From contig CAXYEE010000026.1 of assembly GCA_964276105.1 (NCBI GenBank), positions 247 to 64,246 of the forward strand: a stretch of 64,000 bases of DNA. The letters are read 5' to 3'. Numbering within the stretch: the first letter of the stretch is position 1; each line of letters begins with the position of its first letter. The position numbers and the translations under genes are program-made. This DNA comes from an uncultured Gammaproteobacteria bacterium. Lineage in GTDB: Bacteria > Pseudomonadota > Gammaproteobacteria > Steroidobacterales > Rariloculaceae. Below, piece by piece: positions 1,989-63,589 of this stretch. A model generated the notes under the pieces. That model searched no databases. It saw nothing but the letters and a program-made list of their open reading frames with translations, and was not told the DNA's origin.

Positions 1989-2012
1989 CTTAAATTAAAG
2001 GAAGTTTTGACG

Positions 2013-4190
2013 ATGAGATTTTTTTCTATAGGAATAGTTATCGTAATAGCCGGTATTTTATTTGTTAGGAACAGTGCCGCTCAAATTGATTCTGATGTGG
2101 TCACAATTGATACAGACGATATTGGTGGATTGGTTGTTAGTAAATCTGGTGCTGAAGCTGGTGTATGGGTGATTGCGGAGACTAGGGATTTGCCAACAGG
2201 TTTTCGTAAGATTGTTGTGACAGATGAATCAGGCTACTACTTGATACCAGACCTGCCCTTAGCCAGTTATGACATTTGGGTGCGTGGTTATGGGCTGATC
2301 GATTCTCCAAAGTTAGAAGCAGCGCCTGGTGAAATTATTAATTTGACAGCAGTTGAAGCACCTACTCCTCAAGAGGCAGCTCAATACTATCCATCAAGTT
2401 ATTGGTATTCACTTATTGAGATTCCACCTAAAAGTGATTTTCCTGGAACAGGTCCTAATGGCAATGGAATAGCGACTGGTCTGTTAAGCCAGCTTCACTG
2501 GATTGGTCAGATGAAAGCAGGTGCAGTTGGGGGAGGGTGCTCGGTTTGTCACCAGTTAGGTAATAAAGCTACCCGTGAGATCCCACAAGAACTAGGCGCT
2601 TTTGATTCGACAGTAGATGCTTGGGACAGGCGCGTGCAATCAGGGCAGGCTGGTGCGAGCATGACAGCCGCTATGTCGAGATTTGGTCGTCGCCGCGCAT
2701 TAGAAATGTACGCAGATTGGACCGATCGAATTGTAGAAGGTGAAATTCCATCTGAGCCCCCTAGACCACAGGGTATCGAGCGCAACCTTGTAGTTACACA
2801 GTGGGATTGGGCTGATCCGGTTGGCTTTGTGCACGATACAGTCTCTACCGACAAACGGAATCCAATGCTCAATGCTAATGGTCTTGTCTATGGGGTGCAG
2901 GAGTTCAGTACACCGGATCTAAATATCCTGGATCCTGTGAAGAATAGTTTGACTCGAATTACTGCTCCTGTCCGTGATGAAAATACACCCTTTATGAATC
3001 CGCAGTTTGTATTTCAGCCCTCGGCTCATAATGGGGATGAGATAGTATGGTCTGGGAAAGCCAGTTTGCATAACCCAATGATGGATCACATGGGGAGAGT
3101 GTGGCTTACCCACACGATTCGTGCACCTGAGACCCCTGATTTTTGTCGTGAAGGCTCTAATCATCCGTCAGCAAAACTTTTTCCTGTAGAACGAAGTAAT
3201 CGACATCTTTCTGTTTATGATCCAGCAACAGAGGGTTTTTCATTGATTGATACCTGTTTTGGGACGCACCATCTACAGATAGCAGAAGATGAAGACAACA
3301 CGGTTTGGGCAAGTAATCCTGGTAGCCCAGTATTGGGCTGGTTAAATATGCGATTGTTTGATGAAACTGGTGATGAGCAACAGGCACAGGGCTGGTGTCC
3401 TTATATACTAGATACTAATGGGAATGGTCAGCAGGACGTGTATGTTGAGCCAAATGAGCCAATCGACCCAACTCAGGACAAACGTATAGATGGAGGCAGT
3501 TACGGAATTATTCCAAGCCCTGTTGATGGGTCGATTTGGGTAGCGCAGGGTTATGACGTACCAGGTGCCATAATAAGACTGAGTCCTGGAGCTAATCCTC
3601 CAAACACATGTCTTGCAGAGGTCTATGAGCCTCCCTTTAATAATCCAGCATCCACTATTAGTGGTTTTACTCCGAGGGGGATCGATATTGACCGTGAAGG
3701 AGTTATATGGACTGCCTTAGCTGGTAGTGGGCACTTTGCAAGTTTTGATCGCCGTAAGTGCTCAGTGCTTAATGGGCCAACAGCTACAGGGCAGCACTGT
3801 GCAGAAGGATGGACGCTGCATGAGACACCAGGACCTCACTTTAAGGACGTTGCCTATTCGGGTAGTGCTGATATGTTGTACTACAACTGGGTAGACCAAT
3901 TCGATACATTAGGTCTTGGTAAAGATGTGCCAATTGCGACGGGAACTGGGTCTGATTCACTATTGGTGCTACAACCCGATGGAGAGTTTCTTGTATTGCG
4001 TGTGCCTTACCCTATGGGATTTTCTACACGTGGTGTTGATGGCCGGATTGATGATCCAAATACTGGATGGAAAGGCAGAGGGCTTTGGGCAAACTACGCT
4101 ATTCATGCACCTTGGCATACTGAGGGTGGTGAAGGTGTAACCAGTAAAGCTGTTAAGTTTCAGTTGCGACCAGATCCGCTTGCGAGATAA
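2013..4190 (+). CDS. Exported protein with carboxypeptidase-regulatory-like N-domain, one CxxCH haem-c binding motif and a beta-propeller-like (Vgb/SMP-30-like) C-terminal region
   Basis: The track ORF starts at TTG 2007; ATG 2013 lies 8 nt after AGGAAG. N-terminal hydrophobic signal (MRFFSIGIVIVIAGILFVRNSAAQ). GVWVIAETRDLPTGFRKIVVTDESGYYLIPDLPLASYDIWVRGYG resembles CarboxypepD_reg. CSVCH is encoded at 2538-2552. Repeated GSIWVAQ / GVIWTAL / NTVWASN strand motifs suggest a propeller. It starts about 20 nt after the preceding gene's stop. Confidence 0.7.
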   Translation: MRFFSIGIVIVIAGILFVRNSAAQIDSDVVTIDTDDIGGLVVSKSGAEAGVWVIAETRDLPTGFRKIVVTDESGYYLIPDLPLASYDIWVRGYGLIDSPKLEAAPGEIINLTAVEAPTPQEAAQYYPSSYWYSLIEIPPKSDFPGTGPNGNGIATGLLSQLHWIGQMKAGAVGGGCSVCHQLGNKATREIPQELGAFDSTVDAWDRRVQSGQAGASMTAAMSRFGRRRALEMYADWTDRIVEGEIPSEPPRPQGIERNLVVTQWDWADPVGFVHDTVSTDKRNPMLNANGLVYGVQEFSTPDLNILDPVKNSLTRITAPVRDENTPFMNPQFVFQPSAHNGDEIVWSGKASLHNPMMDHMGRVWLTHTIRAPETPDFCREGSNHPSAKLFPVERSNRHLSVYDPATEGFSLIDTCFGTHHLQIAEDEDNTVWASNPGSPVLGWLNMRLFDETGDEQQAQGWCPYILDTNGNGQQDVYVEPNEPIDPTQDKRIDGGSYGIIPSPVDGSIWVAQGYDVPGAIIRLSPGANPPNTCLAEVYEPPFNNPASTISGFTPRGIDIDREGVIWTALAGSGHFASFDRRKCSVLNGPTATGQHCAEGWTLHETPGPHFKDVAYSGSADMLYYNWVDQFDTLGLGKDVPIATGTGSDSLLVLQPDGEFLVLRVPYPMGFSTRGVDGRIDDPNTGWKGRGLWANYAIHAPWHTEGGEGVTSKAVKFQLRPDPLAR

Positions 4191-8692: not shown

Positions 8693-9652
8693 TCACTCAG
8701 AAATAGATTGGTCATCCATGTCGGTGAAATCAAAATCAAGAAATGTTGTTCCGCCATCTTCCGTTTCTATAACAATATTATTTTGACTCTGGCAGTTCCA
8801 CCAGTACTCTAAACGTAGAGGCGAACCTTCTTCCTGATGCATCTGATTATAGGTCTGTCGTGTGTACCATGGAGTTTCAAGTGCTTCAGTGTCATAAAGC
8901 CAGACATCGGCCTGAATTTTACCATCATCAGTTTTTTGCCAAATCTCAATGCTTTCTAAGGCGGTACTTAAATAAGGTAATAGCCTGCCGATCCAGCCTC
9001 CGTTCGTATACATCGTGTGTGTGATAAGTGTGTGACCATCCCAAAACCCGATTGAGTCGCCATGCTCGGTCTCGTAGGCCCAGTCCTCTGGCGTATGGCC
9101 TCGACCATCTGTATAGATCCGGCGTACTTCGTTTCGAGCCTGACCTAAATGCCAGGTCTGATGTGGCGTGACCGCAAACTCATGAGGCCGTCCATTTTTA
9201 AGCATTCCTGGATAACCCCGGGCTTGACCGCAACCTGCATGGGGGTCCCAAATCCGCCCTTGTTGAGCGTTCGCTAGTATCTCATTGTGCCTCGCGGCAT
9301 ACTCACCTTTAAGGGCGGCGGTGGTTTTAACACCAACTCGATCCCTATCGTATCTAAAGGGAGTGCCTTCTCGTTCCCATAACCCACTCCAGTCAGGAAC
9401 TTCATCAAGAGATAAGGTTGTATCCTCTGACTCGGCTTCAAGCGCTTTATAAAACTCCCATGCTGACTCGTACTGCAGGCCTATTTCGATCATTCGTTGT
9501 TTTGTTTGCGGCCAAAATTGATCGTCGACACTTTCACTATCGTAACTGTCTTCTAAAAAGTTTCCCTGAGCAAATGCTAGTGAGGACATAAATGCAAAAG
9601 TCAGAACCTTGAACATCTGATACAGGATGGTTTTAATCAATGTAATATTCAA
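8693..9652 (-). CDS. Exported protein of the GxSxGxW[ED]G domain family (paralogue A-prime); function unknown
   Basis: 319-aa ORF starting at TTG 9652; an alternative ATG at 9616 gives MFKVLTFAFMSSLAFA|QG, a signal-peptide-like N-terminus. Contains HAGCGQARGYPG, RRIYTDGRGHTPEDW, GDSIGFWDGHTLIT and WWNCQSQ. It is near-identical at the DNA level to 10072-10998 over about 800 nt. Confidence 0.8.
   Translation of the reverse strand: MNITLIKTILYQMFKVLTFAFMSSLAFAQGNFLEDSYDSESVDDQFWPQTKQRMIEIGLQYESAWEFYKALEAESEDTTLSLDEVPDWSGLWEREGTPFRYDRDRVGVKTTAALKGEYAARHNEILANAQQGRIWDPHAGCGQARGYPGMLKNGRPHEFAVTPHQTWHLGQARNEVRRIYTDGRGHTPEDWAYETEHGDSIGFWDGHTLITHTMYTNGGWIGRLLPYLSTALESIEIWQKTDDGKIQADVWLYDTEALETPWYTRQTYNQMHQEEGSPLRLEYWWNCQSQNNIVIETEDGGTTFLDFDFTDMDDQSISE
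8708..9507. repeat. Copy 1 of a ~800-bp direct (tandem, gene-spaced) duplication
   Basis: Direct comparison with 10087-10889. Positions 8708-8978 are base-for-base identical to 10087-10357 (271 nt). Further identical blocks are interrupted by short divergent patches around 8979-8991 and 9275-9365, with a 3-nt length difference. Confidence 0.95.
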
Positions 9653-9661
9653 TCTATGAGG

Positions 9662-10066
9662 TTAGTCTCTACCGGGTGTTCTCCAGTTGAGCAGCGTGCC
9701 GTCTTCTTTGGTGATAGTTTGCCACATGGCTGCTGGACGTCCATCACGCATAGGATTTCCTGTAATAGTTATTTTTGCTCCTGGGGGAAGATCGCCTTTT
9801 CGCACACCACCATGCATCATGTCTTGTGGTCCTTCACCTTCAAATCCCCATGTAGTGATGGTTCCATCATTATTTTCAATGTCTACAATTAACCAGGAAT
9901 GGGGATTAATATATCGGAATTCTTTAACTGTACCAATCAATGTAATGATTTCATCTCTATTAAACATTTCTGCAGAGTGGTGTGCAGAAATTGGAGCTGA
10001 AATACAAACAAATCCAATCAATGTGTAAAGAAGGAGCTGTAAGTTTTTTAAGCATATTTTTTTCAT
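9662..10066 (-). CDS. Small exported His-His protein (DUF6152-like); function unknown
   Basis: The track ORF starts at GTG 10075, overlapping the upstream stop as GTGA. The ATG at 10066 lies 8 nt after GGAG and gives MKKICLKNLQLLLYTLIGFVCISAPISA|HHSAEMFNRDEIITLIGTVKEFRYINPHSWLIVDIENNDG. A signal peptide with an AxA-type site would leave His-His at the mature N-terminus. Confidence 0.85.
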   Translation of the reverse strand: MKKICLKNLQLLLYTLIGFVCISAPISAHHSAEMFNRDEIITLIGTVKEFRYINPHSWLIVDIENNDGTITTWGFEGEGPQDMMHGGVRKGDLPPGAKITITGNPMRDGRPAAMWQTITKEDGTLLNWRTPGRD

Positions 10067-10071
10067 AAGGA

Positions 10072-10998
10072 TCACTCCACGACTTGTTGGTCATCCATGT
10101 CGGTGAAATCAAAATCAAGAAATGTTGTTCCGCCATCTTCCGTTTCTATAACAATATTATTTTGACTCTGGCAGTTCCACCAGTACTCTAAACGTAGAGG
10201 CGAACCTTCTTCCTGATGCATCTGATTATAGGTCTGTCGTGTGTACCATGGAGTTTCAAGTGCTTCAGTGTCATAAAGCCAGACATCGGCCTGAATTTTA
10301 CCATCATCAGTTTTTTGCCAAATCTCAATGCTTTCTAAGGCGGTACTTAAATAAGGTTGCAGCCTTCCGGTCCAGCCTCCGTTCGTATACATCGTGTGTG
10401 TGATAAGTGTGTGACCATCCCAAAACCCGATTGAGTCGCCATGCTCGGTCTCATAAGCCCAGTCCTCTGGCGTATGGCCTCGACCATCTGTATAGATCCG
10501 GCGTACTTCGTTTCGAGCCTGACCTAAATGCCAGGTCTGATGTGGCGTGACCGCAAACTCATGAGGCCGTCCATTTTTAAGCATTCCTGGATAACCCCGG
10601 GCTTGACCGCAACCTGCATGGGGGTCCCAAATCCGCCCTTGTTGAGCGTTCGCAAGTATTTCATTAAACATCTCGGCATACTCGCCTTTAAGGGCGGCGG
10701 TGGTTTGTCGACCAACTTGATCCGTATCGAACCATCGGGGGACGGGACCTTCTCGTTCCCATAACCCACTCCAGTCAGGAACTTCATCAAGAGATAAGGT
10801 TGTATCCTCTGACTCGGCTTCAAGCGCTTTATAAAACTCCCATGCTGACTCGTACTGCAGGCCTATTTCGATCATTCGTTTTTTTGTTTCTAGCCAACTC
10901 TCCGGATAGGCGTTTTTCTGAGAGAAAACAAGCGGAGGTATAAGGGAGCAAGTAAAAATTATTATTGAGCAGTAGGTTTTTAGAGAAAGATTGGTCAT
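10072..10998 (-). CDS. Exported protein of the GxSxGxW[ED]G domain family (paralogue A); function unknown
   Basis: 308 aa with a hydrophobic N-terminal signal (YCSIIIFTCSLIPPLVFSQ). It carries the same conserved blocks as 8693-9652. Its stop lies within 10 nt of the start of the small His-His gene, or overlaps it. Confidence 0.85.
   Translation of the reverse strand: MTNLSLKTYCSIIIFTCSLIPPLVFSQKNAYPESWLETKKRMIEIGLQYESAWEFYKALEAESEDTTLSLDEVPDWSGLWEREGPVPRWFDTDQVGRQTTAALKGEYAEMFNEILANAQQGRIWDPHAGCGQARGYPGMLKNGRPHEFAVTPHQTWHLGQARNEVRRIYTDGRGHTPEDWAYETEHGDSIGFWDGHTLITHTMYTNGGWTGRLQPYLSTALESIEIWQKTDDGKIQADVWLYDTEALETPWYTRQTYNQMHQEEGSPLRLEYWWNCQSQNNIVIETEDGGTTFLDFDFTDMDDQQVVE
10087..10889. repeat. 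Copy 2 of the ~800-bp direct duplication
   Basis: See copy 1. The offset is 1379 nt at the left end and 1382 nt at the right end. Confidence 0.95.
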
Positions 10999-54799: not shown

Positions 54800-55465
54800 A
54801 TGCGTGTTTTGATTTTTTTTCTTTCAGTAGTTAGTCAGCTTTGGTTTTCTGGAGCCTCCTTTGCACAAGGGTGGATTGAATTCGTTGATCAGGTTGATCG
54901 TTTTGGAGTTAATTTTCCAGGTGAACCTGAAATTCGCGAATTTAGCTATACCTCAGAGTTTAACGCTATCTTTCCTGGACGAGTTTATTCAGCTCAAGTA
55001 GGAAGCAATAGTTATTCGGTCACTGTGGTCCATTTTGCAGATGCAGAGCGAATTCATGATGCTATGGAAAAAACGGTGGCACAAAGCGGCCCAAGCAATT
55101 GGCTTTATGACCAAAGAGCGTCTGTAGCCCGTGCGGCTCGTGAATTCCGTCAAAGAGACGGTGAAGTAACTTATGATGCTTGGTCTCATATAGACCGAGT
55201 GGAAGGACTTCAGCTACAACTTACAAATGCAGATGGGTCCAGAACCTTTGCGGGTATCTATTTGAATGGCAATGTAGACCGGCTATACGTTTTAGAGGCT
55301 ACAGTTGATGCTAGGTCGCCATCACCTGGATTATTTCAGCAATCACTTAGATTCTTAGATGACGTAGGGGATAGAATTCGTTATCGATTATCAACAAATG
55401 GTTGCTCTGTATATCCTGATATAGAACCCAATAATCCAGCTATAGCAGTACTATCTATTCGATAA
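54800..55465 (+). CDS. Hypothetical exported protein
   Basis: 221-aa ORF with a signal-like N-terminus (MRVLIFFLSVVSQLWFSGASFA|QG). I recognise no family. Confidence 0.6.
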   Translation: MRVLIFFLSVVSQLWFSGASFAQGWIEFVDQVDRFGVNFPGEPEIREFSYTSEFNAIFPGRVYSAQVGSNSYSVTVVHFADAERIHDAMEKTVAQSGPSNWLYDQRASVARAAREFRQRDGEVTYDAWSHIDRVEGLQLQLTNADGSRTFAGIYLNGNVDRLYVLEATVDARSPSPGLFQQSLRFLDDVGDRIRYRLSTNGCSVYPDIEPNNPAIAVLSIR

Positions 55466-55500: not shown

Positions 55501-55911
55501 TTACAGTTGAGGGGGTAAAGGGATTTCGTTTAGGGTTCCTAAAAGGCCATTAAAACATTGGATTCGAGCGCCCTCTTTAAGCCCAGAGGTTAGGTTAATA
55601 GCTTCTTCATCCGGGTAGATGGCTAACTGCACAGCCACGAGGACGGCCTGTAGATAGGCCCGTTCGAGGAATTTTTGTTCATAGGGGTAGAGACTATTTT
55701 CAACTAAGGGTCTACCTTTTTCTGCATATTCATCTAGGTCTGCCGTACCAATTTCGGGGTTGGGGGTTGCAGCTCGTGCCCATTCAAATAGTAGATCCCA
55801 CTTTTCAATGAGTCTATCGCAATATTCGTTTGCAACTTCAGCATCAGGGGATTGTTGAGAAAAGCTGGGTGATATAGCTAGAAGACCAGCTAGTAGTATT
55901 CCATTTTTCAT
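55501..55911 (-). CDS. Hypothetical exported protein
   Basis: 136-aa ORF with a signal-like N-terminus (MKNGILLAGLLAISPSFS|QQ). I recognise no family. Confidence 0.55.
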   Translation of the reverse strand: MKNGILLAGLLAISPSFSQQSPDAEVANEYCDRLIEKWDLLFEWARAATPNPEIGTADLDEYAEKGRPLVENSLYPYEQKFLERAYLQAVLVAVQLAIYPDEEAINLTSGLKEGARIQCFNGLLGTLNEIPLPPQL

Positions 55912-56172
55912 TGATATAGTTTCGTGATAGAGACTTAAGAGTCTATCCTAAGTTTGAAATTTAAGATGAAAAAAATTGAAAATAATATGGTTAACTAGGG
56001 CTATATCAACATAAATTGATTTCATGGTTATGAGTAGCTTTATATGTAATTCAATTGAGTATCTACCTTATGAGTAAAATTTACATAAACAAAGAGAATG
56101 AACGCCCCACGTGTTGTCAGTAAAAATAAGGGTTACACTCTTATCTTGATCTTCTAGGGGGAGTGATAAGAG

Positions 56173-56985
56173 GTGCTAAAGATCAGGCTGAGAAGCTCAG
56201 TATCAACATTCCTGTTGCTTGTTTTAATGAGTAATGTTGTAAAAGGACAGTCTTCTGAGACTGAGTTTCCTAGGGGTTGGGATGGCAAGCCTAATTTAAA
56301 TGGAATTTGGCAGGCAATTGGTACGGCACACTGGGATATTCAGGATCATCCTGCAAGTGCTGGATTACCTGAGTTTGGAGCAATCGGTGCAATCCCCCCA
56401 GGCCAAGGTGTGGTGGATGGGAATGAGATTCCCTATCAACCTTGGGCCTTAGAGCAGAAACAAAAAAACTTTGATGACCGTTTTACGATGGACCCGGAAA
56501 TCAAATGTTATTTGCCAGGAGTTCCTCGAGCAACCTACTTGCCTTATCCTTTTCAGATAATTCAAGGCACTGATAAGACCATGATTGTTTATGGCTTTGC
56601 AGAAGCCAGTCGTACAATCCATATGAATGTAGAAAACCCAAAACCTGCACCAATTGATAGTTGGATGGGGCGTTCCCATGGGAAATGGGAAGGGGATTCC
56701 TTTGTGGTCAATGTGGCAGAGTTTAATGGACAGTCATGGTTTGATCGAGCCGGTAATTTTGCTAGTGAAACACTTCGTGTGGAAGAGCGATATACACCTC
56801 TTGGTCCAAATGCTCTTATGTACCAGGCTACTATTGAAGACCCAAATGTTTTTACTGAATCTTGGACTATTAGCATGCCACTCTATCGTAGGCTAGAGGA
56901 TCTAGTGCAAGTTTTAGAATTTAAGTGTGTCGAGTATTCAGAAAGTATTTTATACGATCACCTTAGACGGCAGCCCGTAGAGTAA
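56173..56985 (+). CDS. Exported stand-alone GxSxGxW[ED]G-domain protein; function unknown
   Basis: 270 aa with a GTG start after GGGGAG and a signal-like N-terminus (KIRLRSSVSTFLLLVLMSNVVKG|QS). The family blocks are LNGIWQ, KCYLPGVPR, SRTIHMN, GRSHGKWEGDSFVV, VEERYT and FKCVEY. Confidence 0.8.
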   Translation: MLKIRLRSSVSTFLLLVLMSNVVKGQSSETEFPRGWDGKPNLNGIWQAIGTAHWDIQDHPASAGLPEFGAIGAIPPGQGVVDGNEIPYQPWALEQKQKNFDDRFTMDPEIKCYLPGVPRATYLPYPFQIIQGTDKTMIVYGFAEASRTIHMNVENPKPAPIDSWMGRSHGKWEGDSFVVNVAEFNGQSWFDRAGNFASETLRVEERYTPLGPNALMYQATIEDPNVFTESWTISMPLYRRLEDLVQVLEFKCVEYSESILYDHLRRQPVE

Positions 56986-56993
56986 ACATACAG

Positions 56994-58745
56994 TTGCAGA
57001 GGTATTACAAGTTGCAAAGAAAAAACTTTGTTTTTACAACCCTTATGCTAGGGATAATAACGTTGATGCCATACCCAATACTGGGTGCAAATTATCATCA
57101 TGTACATATTCTTGCTCCTAGCCCGCTCGAAGCAGTGAAATGGTATACAGATTATCTGGACTGTGATTCGATTGTAAATCGTATAGATGCAGTTAGTTGT
57201 GATGATATTGAAATTGTCTTTATTGCACGAGCTACCTTAGGAGGTACTCAGGGTACTGGCGTTAATCACATAGCATTTTCAGTCCCTAACCTTGAAAATA
57301 AAATGACTGAACTTGAAAGAGTGGGAGTGTATGGATCAGGTGTTAGGCTGCATAGATTTTCGGATGGTTCAATATTCCAAGATATTCCTGGTTTATATAA
57401 GTCTGGCTTTATTTTTGATCCATGGGGGACTCGGATCGAGCTTGTAGAGGATGCAGACCTTTTAGGATTTCACCATGTTCATTTGAGTTCACCAAACCCT
57501 GAAGAAACATTACTTTGGTATCAGGAAGTTTTTGATGGTGAATTAGCAAGATTGAAGGGGGAGATAGATGGTGTTTTGTTGGGTGATATCTGGGTTCTAG
57601 TGTCCGAGCATTTATCTGGTAGTCCAGCACCAACGCAAGGACGTACTCTTGAAAATTTAGGGTTTGTTGTGCCAGATCTTAATGTAGCGATATCTGGTTT
57701 TCAGGAAAAAGGGCTAGGTGTTCAGCTTGATTCTTTAGGTGAGGGCGGAAGGCCGCAACGCGCTTTTTTGCTTGGGCCTGATAATGTAAATATTTCAGTC
57801 GTTGAATCAGGTTGGGTTAGTGTAAGCGCACAGCAAAAAGTCGATAGGCCTTTAGCAATAGAGCTTCAAGAGCGTTACAGCACATCTTCTACTCCTTGGG
57901 GTGAGCCTGATCTTCAAGGAATTTGGACAAGTGATGCAGCTCATGGGATTCCTTTAGAGAGACCTCTTAATGCTGTACAAACAGTTCCGCTAACACCTGA
58001 AGAAGCGGCTGCCCGTCGCGAAAGAGGAACGCTTAATAGCATTTGGGGGTATGAAAGAGAGTGGCGTGATACTACGTTAGGGTATGCAAAAAACGCTCCC
58101 TCTACCCAAGTGTCATTGATAATTGACCCATCTGATGGTCGACTCCCACCCATGACCCCTTATGGTGAGTCGCTTGTTGCAGCAGCAGAGCTTGCAGCAA
58201 ATCAGCAAAGGTTACCCGCAGGGCCAGAAGATTTAAGTACAGATGATCGTTGTATTACGCGCGGGCTTCCGGGACTGATGTTGCCTAGGGTATATAACAA
58301 TGGATTACAAATTGTCCAAGGCCCAGGTTATGTCGCAATACAAAAGGAAATGGTTCATGAGACGCGTGTAATTCCAACCACAGAAAAACCACATCTTGGG
58401 TCTTCTCTAACCCAATGGCTTGGAGATTCCCGAGGATATTGGGATGGAGAAACACTGGTGGTAGAGGCGCTAAATTTTAATGGTCGGTCACCATTCAGGG
58501 GCGCTGGTAAAGATATGAGGTTAACTGAACGTTATACACGTATTGGACCAACTACGATTGAATATATGTTTACCGTAGTCGATAGCACGATATGGACTAG
58601 TCCTTGGACTGGAATTTTTCATTTTGAAAAAGATGATGATCAGTATGAGCTTGTCGAATATGCATGCCATGAGGGAAATTATGGCCTCACAGGTATATTA
58701 AGTGGTGCTCGTGCTACGGAAAGGGAATCTGCCGCTAATCAGTAA
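56994..58745 (+). CDS. Exported fusion: two VOC (glyoxalase/bleomycin-resistance/dioxygenase-like) domains + C-terminal GxSxGxW[ED]G domain
   Basis: 583 aa; the start is TTG 56994 or ATG 57045. The N-terminal half has two repeats of the VOC pattern (YHHVHILAPSPLEAVKWYTDYL...GVNHIAFSVP...FDPWGTRIELVE and FHHVHLSSPNPEETLLWYQEVF...LENLGFVVPDL). The C-terminal half carries LQGIWTS, DRCITRGLPG, ETRVIPT, GDSRGYWDGETLVV, LTERYT and YACHEGN. Confidence 0.8.
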   Translation: MQRYYKLQRKNFVFTTLMLGIITLMPYPILGANYHHVHILAPSPLEAVKWYTDYLDCDSIVNRIDAVSCDDIEIVFIARATLGGTQGTGVNHIAFSVPNLENKMTELERVGVYGSGVRLHRFSDGSIFQDIPGLYKSGFIFDPWGTRIELVEDADLLGFHHVHLSSPNPEETLLWYQEVFDGELARLKGEIDGVLLGDIWVLVSEHLSGSPAPTQGRTLENLGFVVPDLNVAISGFQEKGLGVQLDSLGEGGRPQRAFLLGPDNVNISVVESGWVSVSAQQKVDRPLAIELQERYSTSSTPWGEPDLQGIWTSDAAHGIPLERPLNAVQTVPLTPEEAAARRERGTLNSIWGYEREWRDTTLGYAKNAPSTQVSLIIDPSDGRLPPMTPYGESLVAAAELAANQQRLPAGPEDLSTDDRCITRGLPGLMLPRVYNNGLQIVQGPGYVAIQKEMVHETRVIPTTEKPHLGSSLTQWLGDSRGYWDGETLVVEALNFNGRSPFRGAGKDMRLTERYTRIGPTTIEYMFTVVDSTIWTSPWTGIFHFEKDDDQYELVEYACHEGNYGLTGILSGARATERESAANQ

Positions 58746-58755
58746 GGTGTTGCTA

Positions 58756-59172
58756 ATGCGTATACCATCGCTAGTATTTTTTATAATAAGTATTTGTCTG
58801 TTACAGCAGTCAGGAGTATCGCTTGCTCATCATGCGTTTTCTGCAGAGTTTGACCAAACAAAACCTGTCACTCTTCGTGGCACGGTTACTAGGATGGAAT
58901 GGATAAATCCTCATTCTTGGCTGCATATCGACGTTATTCAAGAAGACGGTAGTGTAGAAAACTGGATGATAGAGGCAGGACCCGCGGGGGTTCTTGTTCG
59001 CCGAGGATGGACAAGAGAGTCGGTAGCGATTGGTACTGACGTTTTAGTTGAGGGTTATCAGGCCAGGGATGGCTCAAATCGTGCAAATGGTAGGGATGTC
59101 ACATTGCCAGATGGACAGCGCCTATTTGCAGGTTCGGGAGGGATAGGCGCTGCACCACAGGTAGAAGAATAA
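58756..59172 (+). CDS. Small exported His-His protein (DUF6152-like); function unknown
   Basis: The track ORF starts at GTG 58702, inside the upstream gene. ATG 58756 lies 10 nt after that gene's stop and gives MRIPSLVFFIISICLLQQSGVSLA|HHAFSAEFDQTKPVTLRGTVTRMEWINPHSWLHIDV...GWTRESVAIGTDVLVEG. Confidence 0.85.
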   Translation: MRIPSLVFFIISICLLQQSGVSLAHHAFSAEFDQTKPVTLRGTVTRMEWINPHSWLHIDVIQEDGSVENWMIEAGPAGVLVRRGWTRESVAIGTDVLVEGYQARDGSNRANGRDVTLPDGQRLFAGSGGIGAAPQVEE

Positions 59173-60751: not shown

Positions 60752-62038
60752 ATGATGAATGAACATAGTCAGAAACGTTGGGTTTCTAGAGCAGGTTTCT
60801 TGGTTTTCTGTGTATTAGGAATCTATTATCAGAATGTTCAAGGACAGACTGAGCCAGGCTCTGGGTTTGCTGCAGTGCCAGGATTAAGGGGCGGGCAAGA
60901 TGTTCATGGTCCCTATGAGGTGGTGCCAAACTGGCCAAAGCCGATGTCAGAAAGTCTTCCAGGTCACGAAGGCTGGACTTGGTCCGTTACCATGGATGTT
61001 TTTGCTGAGAGTCCAGATCGTGTATTCCTAGTTCAAAAAGGTGAGCTAGCTCTTATTGAGGAAAGACCTGATTCGGTCTGGTTACCAGAGCTTGGTGCTG
61101 GTTTGCGCTACCCCAATTTTCGTTTACCACTCCGTCAAGCTGGGGCAGGTATTCCAAATGGAGATCGGTTGGATGAGCCGGGTAATGGCCGGCCGGGAAT
61201 TGATTGGCGTTGGGAGCACTGCGTTCTAGTAATTGATCGTGAAGGAAATATTGTTGAGGAATGGAGTCAGTGGGACCACCTATGGTATCGGCCTCATGAT
61301 GTTGAGATTAGTCCGTATGATCCAGATAAACATGTTTGGATCGTTGATGCCGATGGTCATTTTGTTGCTAAGTTTACAAATGACGGTTCAGAGTTGGTTA
61401 TGACATTGGGTACGCCGGGGGAGCCAGGAGAGTCTGACAATCATTTTAGACGTCCTACATTTCTGGTTTTTATGGATGAGAACACCATGTACCTTGCCGA
61501 TGGTTATGACAATACTCGGATCATTAAATACGATATGGATGGCAATATTTTAGCCCAATGGGGTGAGAAGGGACGAGGTCAAGGCCAAGAGACAAGGCCA
61601 GGTTATTGGAATAATGTTCATGGTATTGCTGTTGACCCTACAACACGGCGAGTTTATGTGAATGACCGTGATAATGGACGTGTCCAGGTATTTGATGAAG
61701 ATGGTAATTATTTGGATGAATGGCAGTTTTGGTCAGGTAGGCGAGGACAGCCTCAGGATATACATAGCTTTATTGTTACAAGTGATCAAAAACTATGGGC
61801 AGCAGATCAGGGTACCCACAAGATTTTAGGGTACGATCTTGATGGTTATTTTCTTTACTCATGGGGTAGTTGGGGAGAGTATCCCGGAGGTATGTGGGGT
61901 GTTCATGGGATGTCAACTGATAACGAAGGTAACTTTTACACTGCCTCTGTTAATAACGGACGTATTCAAAAGTTTCGCCCTCGAGAAGGGGCTAATCCTG
62001 AATTTTTGATTGGTAAGCCATGGCCAGGCGCTTGGTAA
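60752..62038 (+). CDS. Exported NHL-repeat beta-propeller protein (peptidyl-alpha-hydroxyglycine lyase-like fold)
   Basis: 428 aa with a signal-like N-terminus (WVSRAGFLVFCVLGIYYQNVQG|QT). Repeated NHL-type blades: MYLADGYDNTRIIKYDMDGNIL, VYVNDRDNGRVQVFDEDGNYL, LWAADQGTHKILGYDLDGYFL and FYTASVNNGRIQKF. Confidence 0.75.
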   Translation: MMNEHSQKRWVSRAGFLVFCVLGIYYQNVQGQTEPGSGFAAVPGLRGGQDVHGPYEVVPNWPKPMSESLPGHEGWTWSVTMDVFAESPDRVFLVQKGELALIEERPDSVWLPELGAGLRYPNFRLPLRQAGAGIPNGDRLDEPGNGRPGIDWRWEHCVLVIDREGNIVEEWSQWDHLWYRPHDVEISPYDPDKHVWIVDADGHFVAKFTNDGSELVMTLGTPGEPGESDNHFRRPTFLVFMDENTMYLADGYDNTRIIKYDMDGNILAQWGEKGRGQGQETRPGYWNNVHGIAVDPTTRRVYVNDRDNGRVQVFDEDGNYLDEWQFWSGRRGQPQDIHSFIVTSDQKLWAADQGTHKILGYDLDGYFLYSWGSWGEYPGGMWGVHGMSTDNEGNFYTASVNNGRIQKFRPREGANPEFLIGKPWPGAW

Positions 62039-62101
62039 GTAAACAGTAGGCATATAATTTGGTCTAATCCAAGCTGTCTTTATGGTAATTGTTTGGAAGT
62101 A

Positions 62102-62545
62102 ATGAAAACAATGATTAAAAGCCTTATTGTTTTGGTAGGCATACTTCTTGCGATGTTGTGCGTTATGGCGCGTGCTCATCACGGTGATGCAGGTCGATAT
62201 GATGAAGCAATTATCACATTAACTGGGACGGTTATTGCACTGCAGCTAATTAATCCGCATTCTATATTGATACTTGATGTGAAAAACCAGGATGGTGAGG
62301 TGGTCAGGTGGCAAGCCGAGTTTTCAAATGCCGCTAGTCTGGCTAGGATTGGCTGGACTACCCAGACGCTACAATCTGGTGATGAAGTTGTGGTGGCTGG
62401 TCGTCGTGTAAAAAGCGGCGCACCTTATATCAACCTCAGCGAACGAGCTCGAATTTTCAAACTAGAAACATGCGAAGATATCTATCGTTCTGGAATGATT
62501 TTTGGGGAAGCACCAGATTATCCAGCACCAGCTTGCAGTATGTAG
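62102..62545 (+). CDS. Small exported His-His protein (DUF6152-like); function unknown
   Basis: The track ORF starts at TTG 62093, with ATGs at 62102 and 62111. MKTMIKSLIVLVGILLAMLCVMARA|HHGDAGRYDEAIITLTGTVIALQLINPHSILILDV...GWTTQTLQSGDEVVVAG. Confidence 0.8.
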   Translation: MKTMIKSLIVLVGILLAMLCVMARAHHGDAGRYDEAIITLTGTVIALQLINPHSILILDVKNQDGEVVRWQAEFSNAASLARIGWTTQTLQSGDEVVVAGRRVKSGAPYINLSERARIFKLETCEDIYRSGMIFGEAPDYPAPACSM

Positions 62546-62569
62546 GTTATATGATATAGCGTGCACCTA

Positions 62570-63589
62570 ATGTTCAAGCCGTTCCATATTCTGGTAGTTA
62601 TTTCCTGCTATTTTTTTGCTTGTTCTGCGTGGGCGCAAGGTGGTTCTGATTACTATTCTGGACGTACTGTAACTATATTGGTTGGCTCTGGTTCTGGTGG
62701 TCTAACAGATACATCGGCACGGTTAATAGCACAATTTCTTGAAAAACATATCCCTGGTGAGCCAACAGTAATAGTCCAAAATATGCCTGGTGGTGGAAGC
62801 GTCACGATGGCAAATCATGTAACTAGATCGGTTCCTCGAGACGGAACGGTGATTGGTTATCCTGTTCCTGGAATGATTACTGCAGAGCTTCTCGAACCAG
62901 ATCGGGCGAAATATGAAGGCCGCACGTTAAACTGGATAGGTTCAGCGTTTCGAACTACTAATACCATTTCCGTGCTTAGCAGAACGGGTGTGAAAAGCTT
63001 GGAGGATGCCAGGCAGAAACCTCTGTTTCTAGGGGCTTCTGGTAGAGGATCGCCTTTATATCAAATTCCAGCTCTAGCAAAGGGACTTCTTGGGTTGAAT
63101 TTTACGATTATCACTGGTTATGAAAGCGGTAGCGAGGTTGTTTTGGCAATGGAACGTGGCGAAGTTGATGGTCAGGCAATAGCATTAGATTTCTGGGCAG
63201 GACAGCGTCCGGAGTGGCTTTTAAATGATTCCCTGATACATCTCTTGAGAATTGGCCCACTTGATCCTGATAGAGCCCCTGGCGTACCCCACTTACGTGA
63301 CCTTGTCAGCGGAGATCGGGATAAAGCTCTGGTAGAGCTTTTCGAGATTGGGTTCACACTAGGATGGCCTCTTTTTGCGCCTCCCGGTGTACCTAATGAA
63401 AGAGTGATTATTTTGCGTGAAGCTTTTTCTAAGGTAGTAAAAGATCCGGATTTTTCTGAGATTATTGAGACAACCCTTCATATAGAGCTAGACCCTATAA
63501 TGGGTCCAGAGTTGGCTAACTATGTAGATCAGGCGCTAAGCACTCCTCAACCGTTAGTTGATGAAATGATTAAAATATTAGGGTTGTAA
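62570..63589 (+). CDS. Periplasmic solute-binding protein, Bug/TctC (tripartite tricarboxylate transporter receptor)-like
   Basis: The track ORF starts at GTG 62561, with an ATG at 62570. Signal-like N-terminus (MFKPFHILVVISCYFFACSAWA|QG). TILVGSGSGGLTDTSARLIAQFLEKHIPGEPTVIVQNMPGGGSV resembles the Bug/TctC N-terminal signature. No tctA or tctB lies next to it in this window. Confidence 0.5.
   Translation: MFKPFHILVVISCYFFACSAWAQGGSDYYSGRTVTILVGSGSGGLTDTSARLIAQFLEKHIPGEPTVIVQNMPGGGSVTMANHVTRSVPRDGTVIGYPVPGMITAELLEPDRAKYEGRTLNWIGSAFRTTNTISVLSRTGVKSLEDARQKPLFLGASGRGSPLYQIPALAKGLLGLNFTIITGYESGSEVVLAMERGEVDGQAIALDFWAGQRPEWLLNDSLIHLLRIGPLDPDRAPGVPHLRDLVSGDRDKALVELFEIGFTLGWPLFAPPGVPNERVIILREAFSKVVKDPDFSEIIETTLHIELDPIMGPELANYVDQALSTPQPLVDEMIKILGL

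Follow-up and report, generated by a model that had tools for sequence, protein, structure and literature searches.

Enzymes belonging to the superfamily known as vicinal oxygen chelate (VOC) are textbook cytoplasmic metalloenzymes. Two of them serve as structural references here, maize glyoxalase I (GlxI), which has one functional and one cryptic metal site (PMC5412262), and PcpA, whose metal site combines the strand-1 His11 of the N-terminal domain with His227 and Glu276 of the C-terminal domain (PMC3204407). For small secreted proteins, a histidine as first mature residue is the signature behind the discovery and validation of Ni-binding and Cu/Co-binding families, and in two of these, DUF4198 and DUF6702, the conserved histidine following the signal peptide was shown experimentally to chelate metals; DUF6152 is not among the N-terminal-His families of that study (PMC12537917). 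Here we analyse a 64,000-nucleotide stretch of DNA (the window, meaning the whole of the stretch) from an uncultured gammaproteobacterium of the Rariloculaceae (contig CAXYEE010000026.1 of assembly GCA_964276105.1), in which three consecutive genes, g1, g2 and g3, encode a stand-alone copy of a domain that we call X, a fusion of two VOC domains to domain X, and a DUF6152 protein.

An earlier reading of the DNA letters and open reading frames (ORFs) alone, the sequence-only reading, had taken these genes for a tight exported operon whose middle protein might perform metal-dependent ring-cleavage or isomerase-type chemistry in the periplasm. We document the architecture and homology of the three proteins, the export signals of their families, the conservation of their metal ligands and the synteny of their genes across phyla, and argue tentatively for a periplasmic enzyme module. 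Literature searches found no paper on any of the three families, zero papers for "DUF6152" or "PF19649", and nothing relevant on exported VOC proteins.

Organisation of the locus

The genes, the region upstream and the domains of g2 are arranged as follows; residue numbers in g2 are counted from position 56994 throughout.

55912 to 56172, forward: AT-rich intergenic region upstream of g1, common to the divergent gene 55501-55911
56173 to 56985, forward: g1, a 270-residue ORF with a GTG start; stand-alone domain X, predicted to be exported, with a predicted signal peptide of about 25 residues
56994 to 58745, forward: g2, a 583-residue ORF with a TTG start; VOC-VOC-domain X fusion, predicted to be exported
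56994 to 57089, forward: predicted g2 signal peptide, residues 1-32 (7-32 from TTG 57012), MQRKNFVFTTLMLGIITLMPYPILGA, followed by mature NYHHVH
57090 to 57452, forward: VOC domain 1 (VOC1), residues 33-153, with HHVH, C57/C69, E73, H92, E149 and E152; predicted local distance difference test (pLDDT) about 85-94
57465 to 57818, forward: VOC domain 2 (VOC2), residues 158-275, with HHVH, N221 and E271; duplicate of VOC1
57891 to 58742, forward: g2 domain X, residues 300-583 (about 280 residues), paralogous to g1, with the C420/C558 pair
58756 to 59172, forward: g3, a 138-residue ORF with an ATG start; DUF6152 protein, predicted to be exported

Measured from the ORF ends, g1 and g2 are 8 nt apart and g2 and g3 10 nt, which reproduces the spacing on which the sequence-only reading had based its operon. 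The first gap widens to 26 nt if g2 begins at an in-frame TTG at 57012, the likelier start (giving 577 residues) because AGAGG stands 9 nt upstream of it and because it aligns exactly with the annotated start of the homologue P0003, which is 80% identical. The GTG of g1 has GGGGAG 9 nt ahead of it and the ATG of g3 at 58756 has AAGGTG 6 nt upstream, an alternative opening of g3 being GTG 58702. The AT-rich region presumably holds the promoter, and a single weak sigma-70-like match lies at 55954-55983; scans upstream of g1 with Fur, Zur, NikR, MntR-like, CsoR and CueR consensus sequences scored no better than shuffled controls. A simple scan combined with hairpin folding revealed no convincing terminator inside the three genes or just past g3, where hairpins are no more stable than in shuffled sequence (z = 0.02). 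On the evidence of shared strand, short gaps, an order kept in 49 loci and no internal terminator, g1-g2-g3 is an operon-like unit.

The middle protein carries a VOC didomain

VOC1 scores above the gathering threshold of the Glyoxalase family PF00903 (32.5 against 20.6 bits, residues 35-150, E 1.2e-7) and also passes PF13669 over the same residues (27.6 bits, cut-off 27). VOC2 is missed by Pfam alone; residues 158-289 nonetheless duplicate residues 34-157 (26% identity, E 4e-13) and align with FosB, bearing out the VOC-VOC fusion, and the match of the N-terminal half to VOC profiles, that had been proposed from the sequence. The HHVH motifs, at residues 35-38 (57096-57107) and 160-163 (57471-57482), each lie on the first predicted strand of their domain, as the sequence-only reading had it. 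In the AlphaFold2 (AF2) model of g2 the VOC region has a pLDDT of about 90 and comprises four beta-alpha-beta-beta-beta modules arranged in pairs. Foldseek matches 267 PDB VOC chains to g2 at E<=1e-3 and aligns the whole didomain with 1zsw, maize GlxI, PcpA (4huz) and 3oaj (E 1e-11 to 1e-9; target TM-score, TMt, 0.55-0.64), while enzymes of the BphC type overlay one domain only (root mean square deviation about 19 A, TMt about 0.3). The curated profile threshold passed, the paired modules and the metal-ligand positions together place g2 in the VOC superfamily by sequence and predicted fold. Full-length homologues of the protein, about 580 residues long and 59-92% identical, number more than 1873 and are annotated at most as "VOC family protein".

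The putative metal ligands were located by their spacing to the conserved W/F-Y of helix 1, for which the E. coli GloA ligands, which we take to be H5/E56/H74/E122, served as spacing reference, and by profile alignment to FosB, which sets H161 on FosB H7 and position 221 on FosB H66 (E 7e-4). The canonical positions so identified are H36/E73/H92/E149 in VOC1 and H161/H221/E271 in VOC2. Counted in 121 g2-family sequences, E73, E152, H160 and H163 are invariant (121/121 each), H92 and E271 are kept in 120/121, E149, H161 and H221 in 117/121, and H36 in 95/121 (F or Y in the other 26). The window g2 has H36, E73, H92, E149, H161 and E271, with an Asn at position 221 (AAT, 57654-57656) that recurs only in P0001 and P0002, the proteins nearest to it. 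The metal-ligand triad expected by the sequence-only reading is thus conserved in the family, with His221 lost from the copy in the window, and of the HHVH motifs that it noted, the one in VOC2 has H160 and H163 that never vary, the one in VOC1, through H36, being dispensable in part of the family.

Because Asn replaces His at 221, the window g2 is predicted to keep one complete metal site, the other being degenerate, under either arrangement of the sites considered here. As Foldseek overlays the whole didomain on GlxI, 1zsw, PcpA and 3oaj, and the BphC types on one domain only, the model suggests GlxI/PcpA-like sites built across both domains, site A from H36/E73 with H221/E271 and site B from H161 with H92/E149. 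Both losses seen in the lineages, H36 to F or Y and H221 to N, would then fall in site A, leaving site B intact in the window g2. Should the sites instead lie within a domain, the complete one would be H36/E73/H92/E149.

Domain X is shared by g1 and g2

Residues 101-254 of g1 align with residues 412-560 of g2 (30% identity, E 5e-19), and profiles of the g1 and g2 families find each other among the window ORFs (E 4e-22 and 8.5e-26), so the upstream protein is the same domain as the C-terminus of the fusion, as had been read from the sequence. No Pfam or NCBIfam model matches domain X in g1, in the g2 C-terminus or in 12 diverse members scanned; PDB sequence searches with g1, g2 and g3 singly gave nothing significant, and a broad domain X profile had no PDB match at E<=10. 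The domain is nevertheless abundant, with at least 8000 matches to the g1 family at E<=1e-3 and 12,555 domain X cluster representatives at 50% identity (E<=1e-3).

The AF2 model of g1, of moderate confidence (pLDDT 67.7, predicted TM-score 0.71), is an eight-stranded antiparallel beta meander, whose weak structural neighbours are exclusively calycins of the FABP, CRABP and SAHS types (E about 1e-3, TMt about 0.55). Modelling points to a beta-barrel, putatively stapled by a disulfide. In g1 orthologues the pair C112 and C252 is invariant, as are H59, H150, M151, M165 and H169, the last four of which are placed at the base of a predicted beta hairpin and form a possible His/Met metal site. This cluster is absent from the domain X of g2, from the cytochrome-fused P0256 and from other X domains; what the superfamily has in common is limited to the Cys pair, Gly/Trp positions and a single Arg, Glu and Asp each. 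Two single representatives in our library, both from outside the window, show other architectures: P0256, a close relative of g1, carries an N-terminal mono-haem cytochrome c (PF13442 E 2e-15, CQACH) after its signal peptide, and P0241 is a tandem X-X protein.

g3 is a DUF6152 protein with an N-terminal His-His

g3 matches PF19649 (DUF6152), scoring 121.1 bits where the cut-off is 27 (E 2.2e-35). Its predicted signal peptide ends in SLA, placing a His-His at the mature N-terminus (58828-58833), and an NPH motif follows at 58906-58914. Among 124 DUF6152 sequences the His-His directly follows the cleavage site predicted from sequence (xxA/HH, the slash marking cleavage) without exception, A24 before it and H25 H26 after it being conserved in 124/124, as is E73, with H53 of the NPH motif in 123/124 and H57 in 121/124. 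Distant Novosphingobium copies retain the pattern AHHSF...FD...PH. Metal binding by g3 through the N-terminal His-His and the NPH histidine is a well-motivated inference by analogy with the N-terminal-His families.

All three families are predicted to be exported

By a simple hydropathy and charge criterion, requiring a positive n-region and a hydrophobic core, export signals are found in 116/120 g2, 100/120 g1 and 117/123 g3 homologues, in agreement with the export-type N-terminus first noticed for g2. Signal peptides of the g2 family have a median length of 27-28 residues and a typical cleavage motif ARA/AD, and all g2 homologues inspected start with a classical Sec signal (for example MNRTRIALTLVAAAASLVAIPAVARA, followed by mature ADYHHVHI). 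Neither a twin-arginine motif nor a lipobox is present in the g1, g2 or g3 families, and all three proteins are predicted to be exported by the Sec route. The g2 Cys pairs C57/C69 in VOC1 and C420/C558 in domain X are conserved in 121/121 sequences; together with the invariant pair of g1 they fit periplasmic proteins with disulfide bonds. An amino-terminal Cu(II)- and Ni(II)-binding (ATCUN) reading of the mature g2 N-terminus (N-Y-H) was considered and rejected, most homologues maturing as A-D-Y-H-H with His at positions 4 and 5.

Conservation of the gene triad across phyla

Scanning a single genome per species turned up 295 g2 relatives, and the loci analysed were taken from the best 80 of the 295, all of them metagenome-assembled genomes (MAGs), from Vicinamibacterales, Bryobacterales, Thermoanaerobaculia, Terriglobia and Gammaproteobacteria including Ca. 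Rariloculaceae. These loci hold 93 g2 genes; g1 lies immediately upstream of 52 of them, DUF6152 immediately downstream of 50, and both flank 49, the rest being extra tandem copies or solitary paralogues. The survey of the architecture that the sequence-only reading had called for thus finds the g1-g2-g3 order in 49 of 93 cases, in Gammaproteobacteria and several orders of Acidobacteriota. Across phyla, identity to the window proteins is 58-79% for g1, 60-74% for the domain X of g2, 43-57% for its VOC part and 61-83% for g3; between Gammaproteobacteria and Acidobacteriota the arrangement as a whole is kept at 60-80% identity.

In many Vicinamibacterales one or two more full-length g2 paralogues come after g1-g2-DUF6152, and other loci have a solitary g2 with neither g1 nor DUF6152 (extra or solitary copies occur in L003, L005, L006, L015, L033, L035, L038, L069, L079 and L083). 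These tandem and solitary copies indicate that the VOC-X fusion has diversified independently of g1 and DUF6152.

Domain X and DUF6152 form a conserved pair

The window as a whole contains five X domains and four DUF6152 copies, distributed beyond the triad as follows.

975 to 1988, forward: DUF6152-X fusion of 337 residues, predicted mature N-terminus HHSEAGFD; PF19649 E 7e-21 (residues 24-108), X hidden Markov model E 6e-10 and 1.5e-7 (residues 176-312)
2007 to 4190, forward: exported-type protein of 727 residues directly after the fusion; N-terminus weakly CarboxypepD_reg-like, one CSVCH haem-c motif
8693 to 10998, reverse: X-DUF6152-X run, with X at 10072-10998, DUF6152 at 9662-10075 and X at 8693-9652
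62093 to 62545, forward: fourth DUF6152, preceded by the NHL propeller gene, with a TctC-like binding protein next; not beside an X gene

The union of DUF6152 and X in a single protein at 975-1988 argues that the two families physically interact. Of 76 DUF6152 genes in the window and the fetched loci, a sample biased toward g2 loci, nine are fused to X and 63 lie beside an X gene on the same strand. The small His-His protein, which the sequence-only reading had treated as an appendage of the VOC fusion, is therefore one half of the conserved pair (72/76 fused or adjacent); DUF6152 and domain X appear to be the conserved core, with the VOC didomain one of several attachments of X.

The two X paralogues of the run at 8693-10998 (308 and 319 residues) are near-identical through the centre and the C-terminal part, as a recent tandem duplication would explain. 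Only 15 nt separate the fourth DUF6152 from a TctC/TAXI-like periplasmic binding protein downstream (62093-63589, forward, for the two together), and the position of this DUF6152 is kept in the related gammaproteobacterial loci L001 and L081, in the latter with the TctC-like gene on the opposite strand. The pair also occurs in cultured Novosphingobium. On the N. humi plasmid NZ_CP103870 (L088) a hypothetical protein that matches GH39 weakly and in part, an X-DUF6152 pair and a TetR regulator follow in that order, and on the megaplasmid NC_015583 of Novosphingobium sp. PP1Y (L089) the surroundings of the X-DUF6152 pairs include a LigB ring-opening dioxygenase, an M20 peptidase and a TonB-dependent receptor. 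The 727-residue protein at 2007-4190 has a 53%-identical homologue of 715 residues that keeps the CxxCH motif and lies convergent with a g1-g2-DUF6152-g2 cluster in the acidobacterial contig L083; by tblastn, 14/87 loci have a member of its family no more than 6 kb from g2.

Neighbouring genes

Beyond the triad, neighbours are common to close relatives only: a nuo operon upstream, and an amidohydrolase, an NHL propeller, DUF6152 and the TctC-like gene downstream. When flanking ORFs were clustered all against all, an analysis swamped by the shadow ORFs of high-GC genomes, lineage-specific neighbours alone emerged. In the loci examined the triad has no conserved transporter, P-type ATPase or metal-sensor gene at its side.

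54800 to 55465, forward: exported-type protein of 221 residues without a family match; a 55%-identical homologue adjoins DUF6152 and X genes in the acidobacterial MAG L068
59378 to 60643, forward: amidohydrolase with a lipoprotein-like N-terminus (…FFIAAC…)
60752 to 62038, forward: NHL beta-propeller with a signal peptide

The amidohydrolase and NHL propeller are syntenic with the triad in L001 and L081, and a 53%-identical amidohydrolase follows g2-g3 in the Vicinamibacteria MAG L034.

Proposed function

We propose a joint model, which we rate at a little short of an even chance, in which g1-g2-g3 is a periplasmic module with g2 as metal-dependent VOC enzyme, g1 as free barrel paralogue and g3 as metal-binding partner docking on domain X. 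In such a module the three proteins would leave the cytoplasm by the Sec route and work together in the periplasm. The catalytic component would be g2, a four-module VOC didomain fused to the disulfide-stapled barrel X, with a complete metal site made of H161, H92 and E149 in the cross-domain arrangement or of H36/E73/H92/E149 in the within-domain one. Its barrel would have a free paralogue in g1, and g3 would hold a metal ion by its mature His-His and the NPH histidine and dock on domain X. What we infer in this model is the assembly of a complex, the binding of metal by g3, the catalysis and the substrate class.

The chemistry would be a metal-dependent change of a small organic molecule requiring no cytoplasmic cofactor. 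The reactions of glyoxalase I and methylmalonyl-CoA epimerase depend on thiol or CoA substrates of the cytoplasm, which leaves either ring cleavage, hinted at by the PcpA/MhqO-like fold, or hydrolytic and isomerase reactions. Our first choice would be O2-dependent cleavage of a catechol-like or hydroquinone-like ring and our second hydrolytic or isomerase chemistry, ring cleavage by g2 being only a guess by analogy. The VOC identity, the export signal and most of the ligands in the sequence-only reading of a periplasmic ring-cleavage or isomerase enzyme have therefore held, and its specific chemistry is conjectural, the best profile match to a characterised protein having an E value of 2.5e-5. 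An N-terminal half without VOC similarity, missing ligands or a missing signal peptide would have spoken against an exported VOC enzyme; VOC similarity and a predicted signal peptide were both found, and a single ligand is lost (N221).

Several observations weigh against the joint model. The g2 didomain is remote from every characterised VOC protein, that E value of 2.5e-5 being its best PDB profile match and identity to its structural matches 11-16%, and activity, metal and substrate are without precedent in any family member. Besides the Asn at position 221 of the window copy, the strand-1 histidines of VOC1 are wholly replaced (by D-F-Q) in 14 homologues. Sec export implies metal loading in the periplasm, where Cu, Zn or Ni is a likelier metal than the Fe(II) or Mn(II) of ring-cleaving VOC dioxygenases. 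The models of domain X in g1 and g2 are of only moderate or low confidence. X is the best-kept part of g2, ahead of the VOC part in cross-phylum identity, and X-DUF6152 pairs with no VOC domain at all exist in the window and in Novosphingobium; because of these two facts the VOC didomain may be peripheral to the core function.

Other explanations were weighed. The module may be one of periplasmic metal capture and trafficking and not an enzyme, the His-His of g3, the H150/M151/M165/H169 cluster of g1 and the HHVH strands of g2 passing Cu, Ni or Zn on, either among the three proteins or to neighbouring exported metalloenzymes. The conserved residues of DUF6152 (His-His, NPH, H57 and E73) and the invariant H59, H150, M151, M165 and H169 of g1 orthologues would suit such a role, N-terminal-His metal carriers are documented (PMC12537917), export is by the Sec route, and X-DUF6152 genes stand beside varied metallohydrolases and dioxygenases, namely an amidohydrolase in the window and L034 and an M20 peptidase and LigB in PP1Y. 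Yet no metal-regulator operator stood out from shuffled sequence upstream of g1, and the loci show no conserved transporter, P-type ATPase or metal sensor. The regulator following the N. humi pair belongs to the TetR family, which usually senses small organic ligands rather than metals; the His/Met cluster is not shared by other X domains, and a VOC protein whose ligand set is full is generally either an enzyme or a binder of small molecules. We consider trafficking unlikely, whether the metal stays among the three proteins or is handed to neighbours. Alternatively X and DUF6152 could be the real core, possibly a redox system, with the VOC didomain as one interchangeable accessory. X is indeed the most conserved part of g2 and has as its fusion partners DUF6152 (975-1988), VOC-VOC (g2) and, in P0256, a mono-haem cytochrome c, and the 727-residue CxxCH protein follows the DUF6152-X fusion, has its 53%-identical homologue beside a triad and recurs near g2 in 14/87 loci. 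The cytochrome fusion is, however, known from one cluster representative, the residues conserved throughout the X superfamily include no set resembling a cofactor site, and the weak structural neighbours of X are ligand-binding calycins and not redox proteins; a redox core seems to us quite unlikely.

The VOC superfamily also includes pure binding proteins, and the name of PF00903 covers those of bleomycin resistance. The didomain could accordingly be a non-catalytic binder of the bleomycin- or mitomycin-resistance kind, in a module that sequesters or shuttles some nutrient or toxic compound within the periplasm. Barrels of the calycin kind typically carry ligands, paralogues are many (the five X and four DUF6152 copies in 64 kb), and a TonB receptor or TctC-like binding protein lies near some pairs. 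To our knowledge, however, binding-only VOC proteins lack His/Glu metal ligands, which are kept here in 117-121 of 121 sequences, and no transporter gene is consistently linked to the triad, making a mere binder improbable. The remaining explanation, that the proteins are cytoplasmic or membrane-anchored and adjacent by chance, their N-termini being mis-called starts or uncleaved anchors, draws on gene callers that use an internal Met (giving a 566-residue g2 and a 252-residue g1) and so remove the charged n-region. The longer N-termini, with n-region, hydrophobic core and AxA motif, are kept across phyla, there is no lipobox cysteine, the Cys pairs of VOC1 and X are invariant, and the gene order persists in 49 loci of distant phyla, all of which makes this explanation exceedingly improbable.

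A wider reading can be drawn from the same data, though we hold it doubtful: DUF6152, taken as a metal-binding fold of a new kind that begins with His-His, would form with the disulfide-stapled barrel of domain X a widespread two-component periplasmic module that recruits interchangeable catalytic or redox domains. Equally doubtful is the list of recruits, which would be VOC-VOC here and cytochrome c elsewhere, in addition to the conserved 720-residue partner with a haem motif. If this wider reading is true, marine and soil bacteria would have a class of periplasmic oxidative enzyme systems that has so far escaped recognition. Apart from this reading, the exported VOC didomain, fused to a barrel without known family and accompanied by a barrel paralogue and a His-His protein, is a phylum-spanning variant of a known superfamily, and the analysis defines three very large uncharacterised families, X without a Pfam model, DUF6152 without literature and the group of about 580-residue "VOC family proteins". 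Should the His-His protein prove to be a metal donor or catalytic partner, it would add a new family to the N-terminal-histidine metalloproteins. Novosphingobium humi and Novosphingobium sp. PP1Y, which carry X-DUF6152 pairs, offer cultured entry points.

Comparison with known systems

Maize GLX1 (Zea mays; 5D7Z, 6BNZ) gives the best global superposition on g2 (TMt 0.63-0.64). Like g2 it has four beta-alpha-beta-beta-beta modules in one chain and His/Glu/His/Glu at the canonical positions, and its cryptic site parallels the degenerate site of the window g2. It differs in that identity is 14-15% and in being a cytoplasmic enzyme that needs a glutathione hemithioacetal, whereas g2 is predicted to be exported and has disulfide-type Cys pairs and an additional domain of 280 residues. 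Assignment of g2 as a glyoxalase I equivalog was rejected, TIGR00068 scoring 19.8 bits against a cut-off of 120 and a predicted periplasmic site being inconsistent with a glutathione-dependent reaction.

Among the top Foldseek matches of g2 are hydroquinone ring-cleaving dioxygenases of the PcpA/MhqO/1ZSW type (1zsw E 1.8e-11, 4huz E 1.8e-10, 3oaj E 4.6e-10). PcpA/MhqO-type enzymes also carry an "HH" on the first strand, and PcpA (4huz) combines a fold match of TMt 0.55 with 12% identity and compatible His/His/Glu positions, an equivalent of its Tyr266 not being identified in g2. Identity to the group is 12-16% with no profile-level match, and its members are cytoplasmic Fe(II) enzymes of about 320 residues, as against about 245 for the g2 didomain. 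A type I extradiol dioxygenase (BphC/XylE) was likewise considered and rejected on a one-domain overlay and no profile match below E 1e-3, the catechol dioxygenase 9wgj reaching E 0.0033. FosB is by profile the best-aligned characterised protein for VOC2 (E 7e-4), with its ligands H7 and H66 on H161 and position 221; FosA and FosB differ from g2 in being single-domain dimers and cytoplasmic thiol transferases, and the NCBIfam Fos models score far below their cut-offs.

The partners of the didomain have more distant parallels. Domain X, by the g1 model, resembles the calycins (FABP/CRABP/SAHS) in its antiparallel beta meander barrel, a weak match, and differs in being twice as long, in its conserved Cys pair and N-terminal PDLxGxW motif, and in having no sequence relation to them. 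g3 resembles the N-terminal-His metalloproteins (DUF4198, DUF6702, the "anglerases", and CopC and LPMO with their histidine brace) in having a His first after the predicted cleavage and further conserved His and acidic residues. It is distinguished from them by a Pfam family of its own, PF19649, and by the doubling of the N-terminal histidine to His-His.

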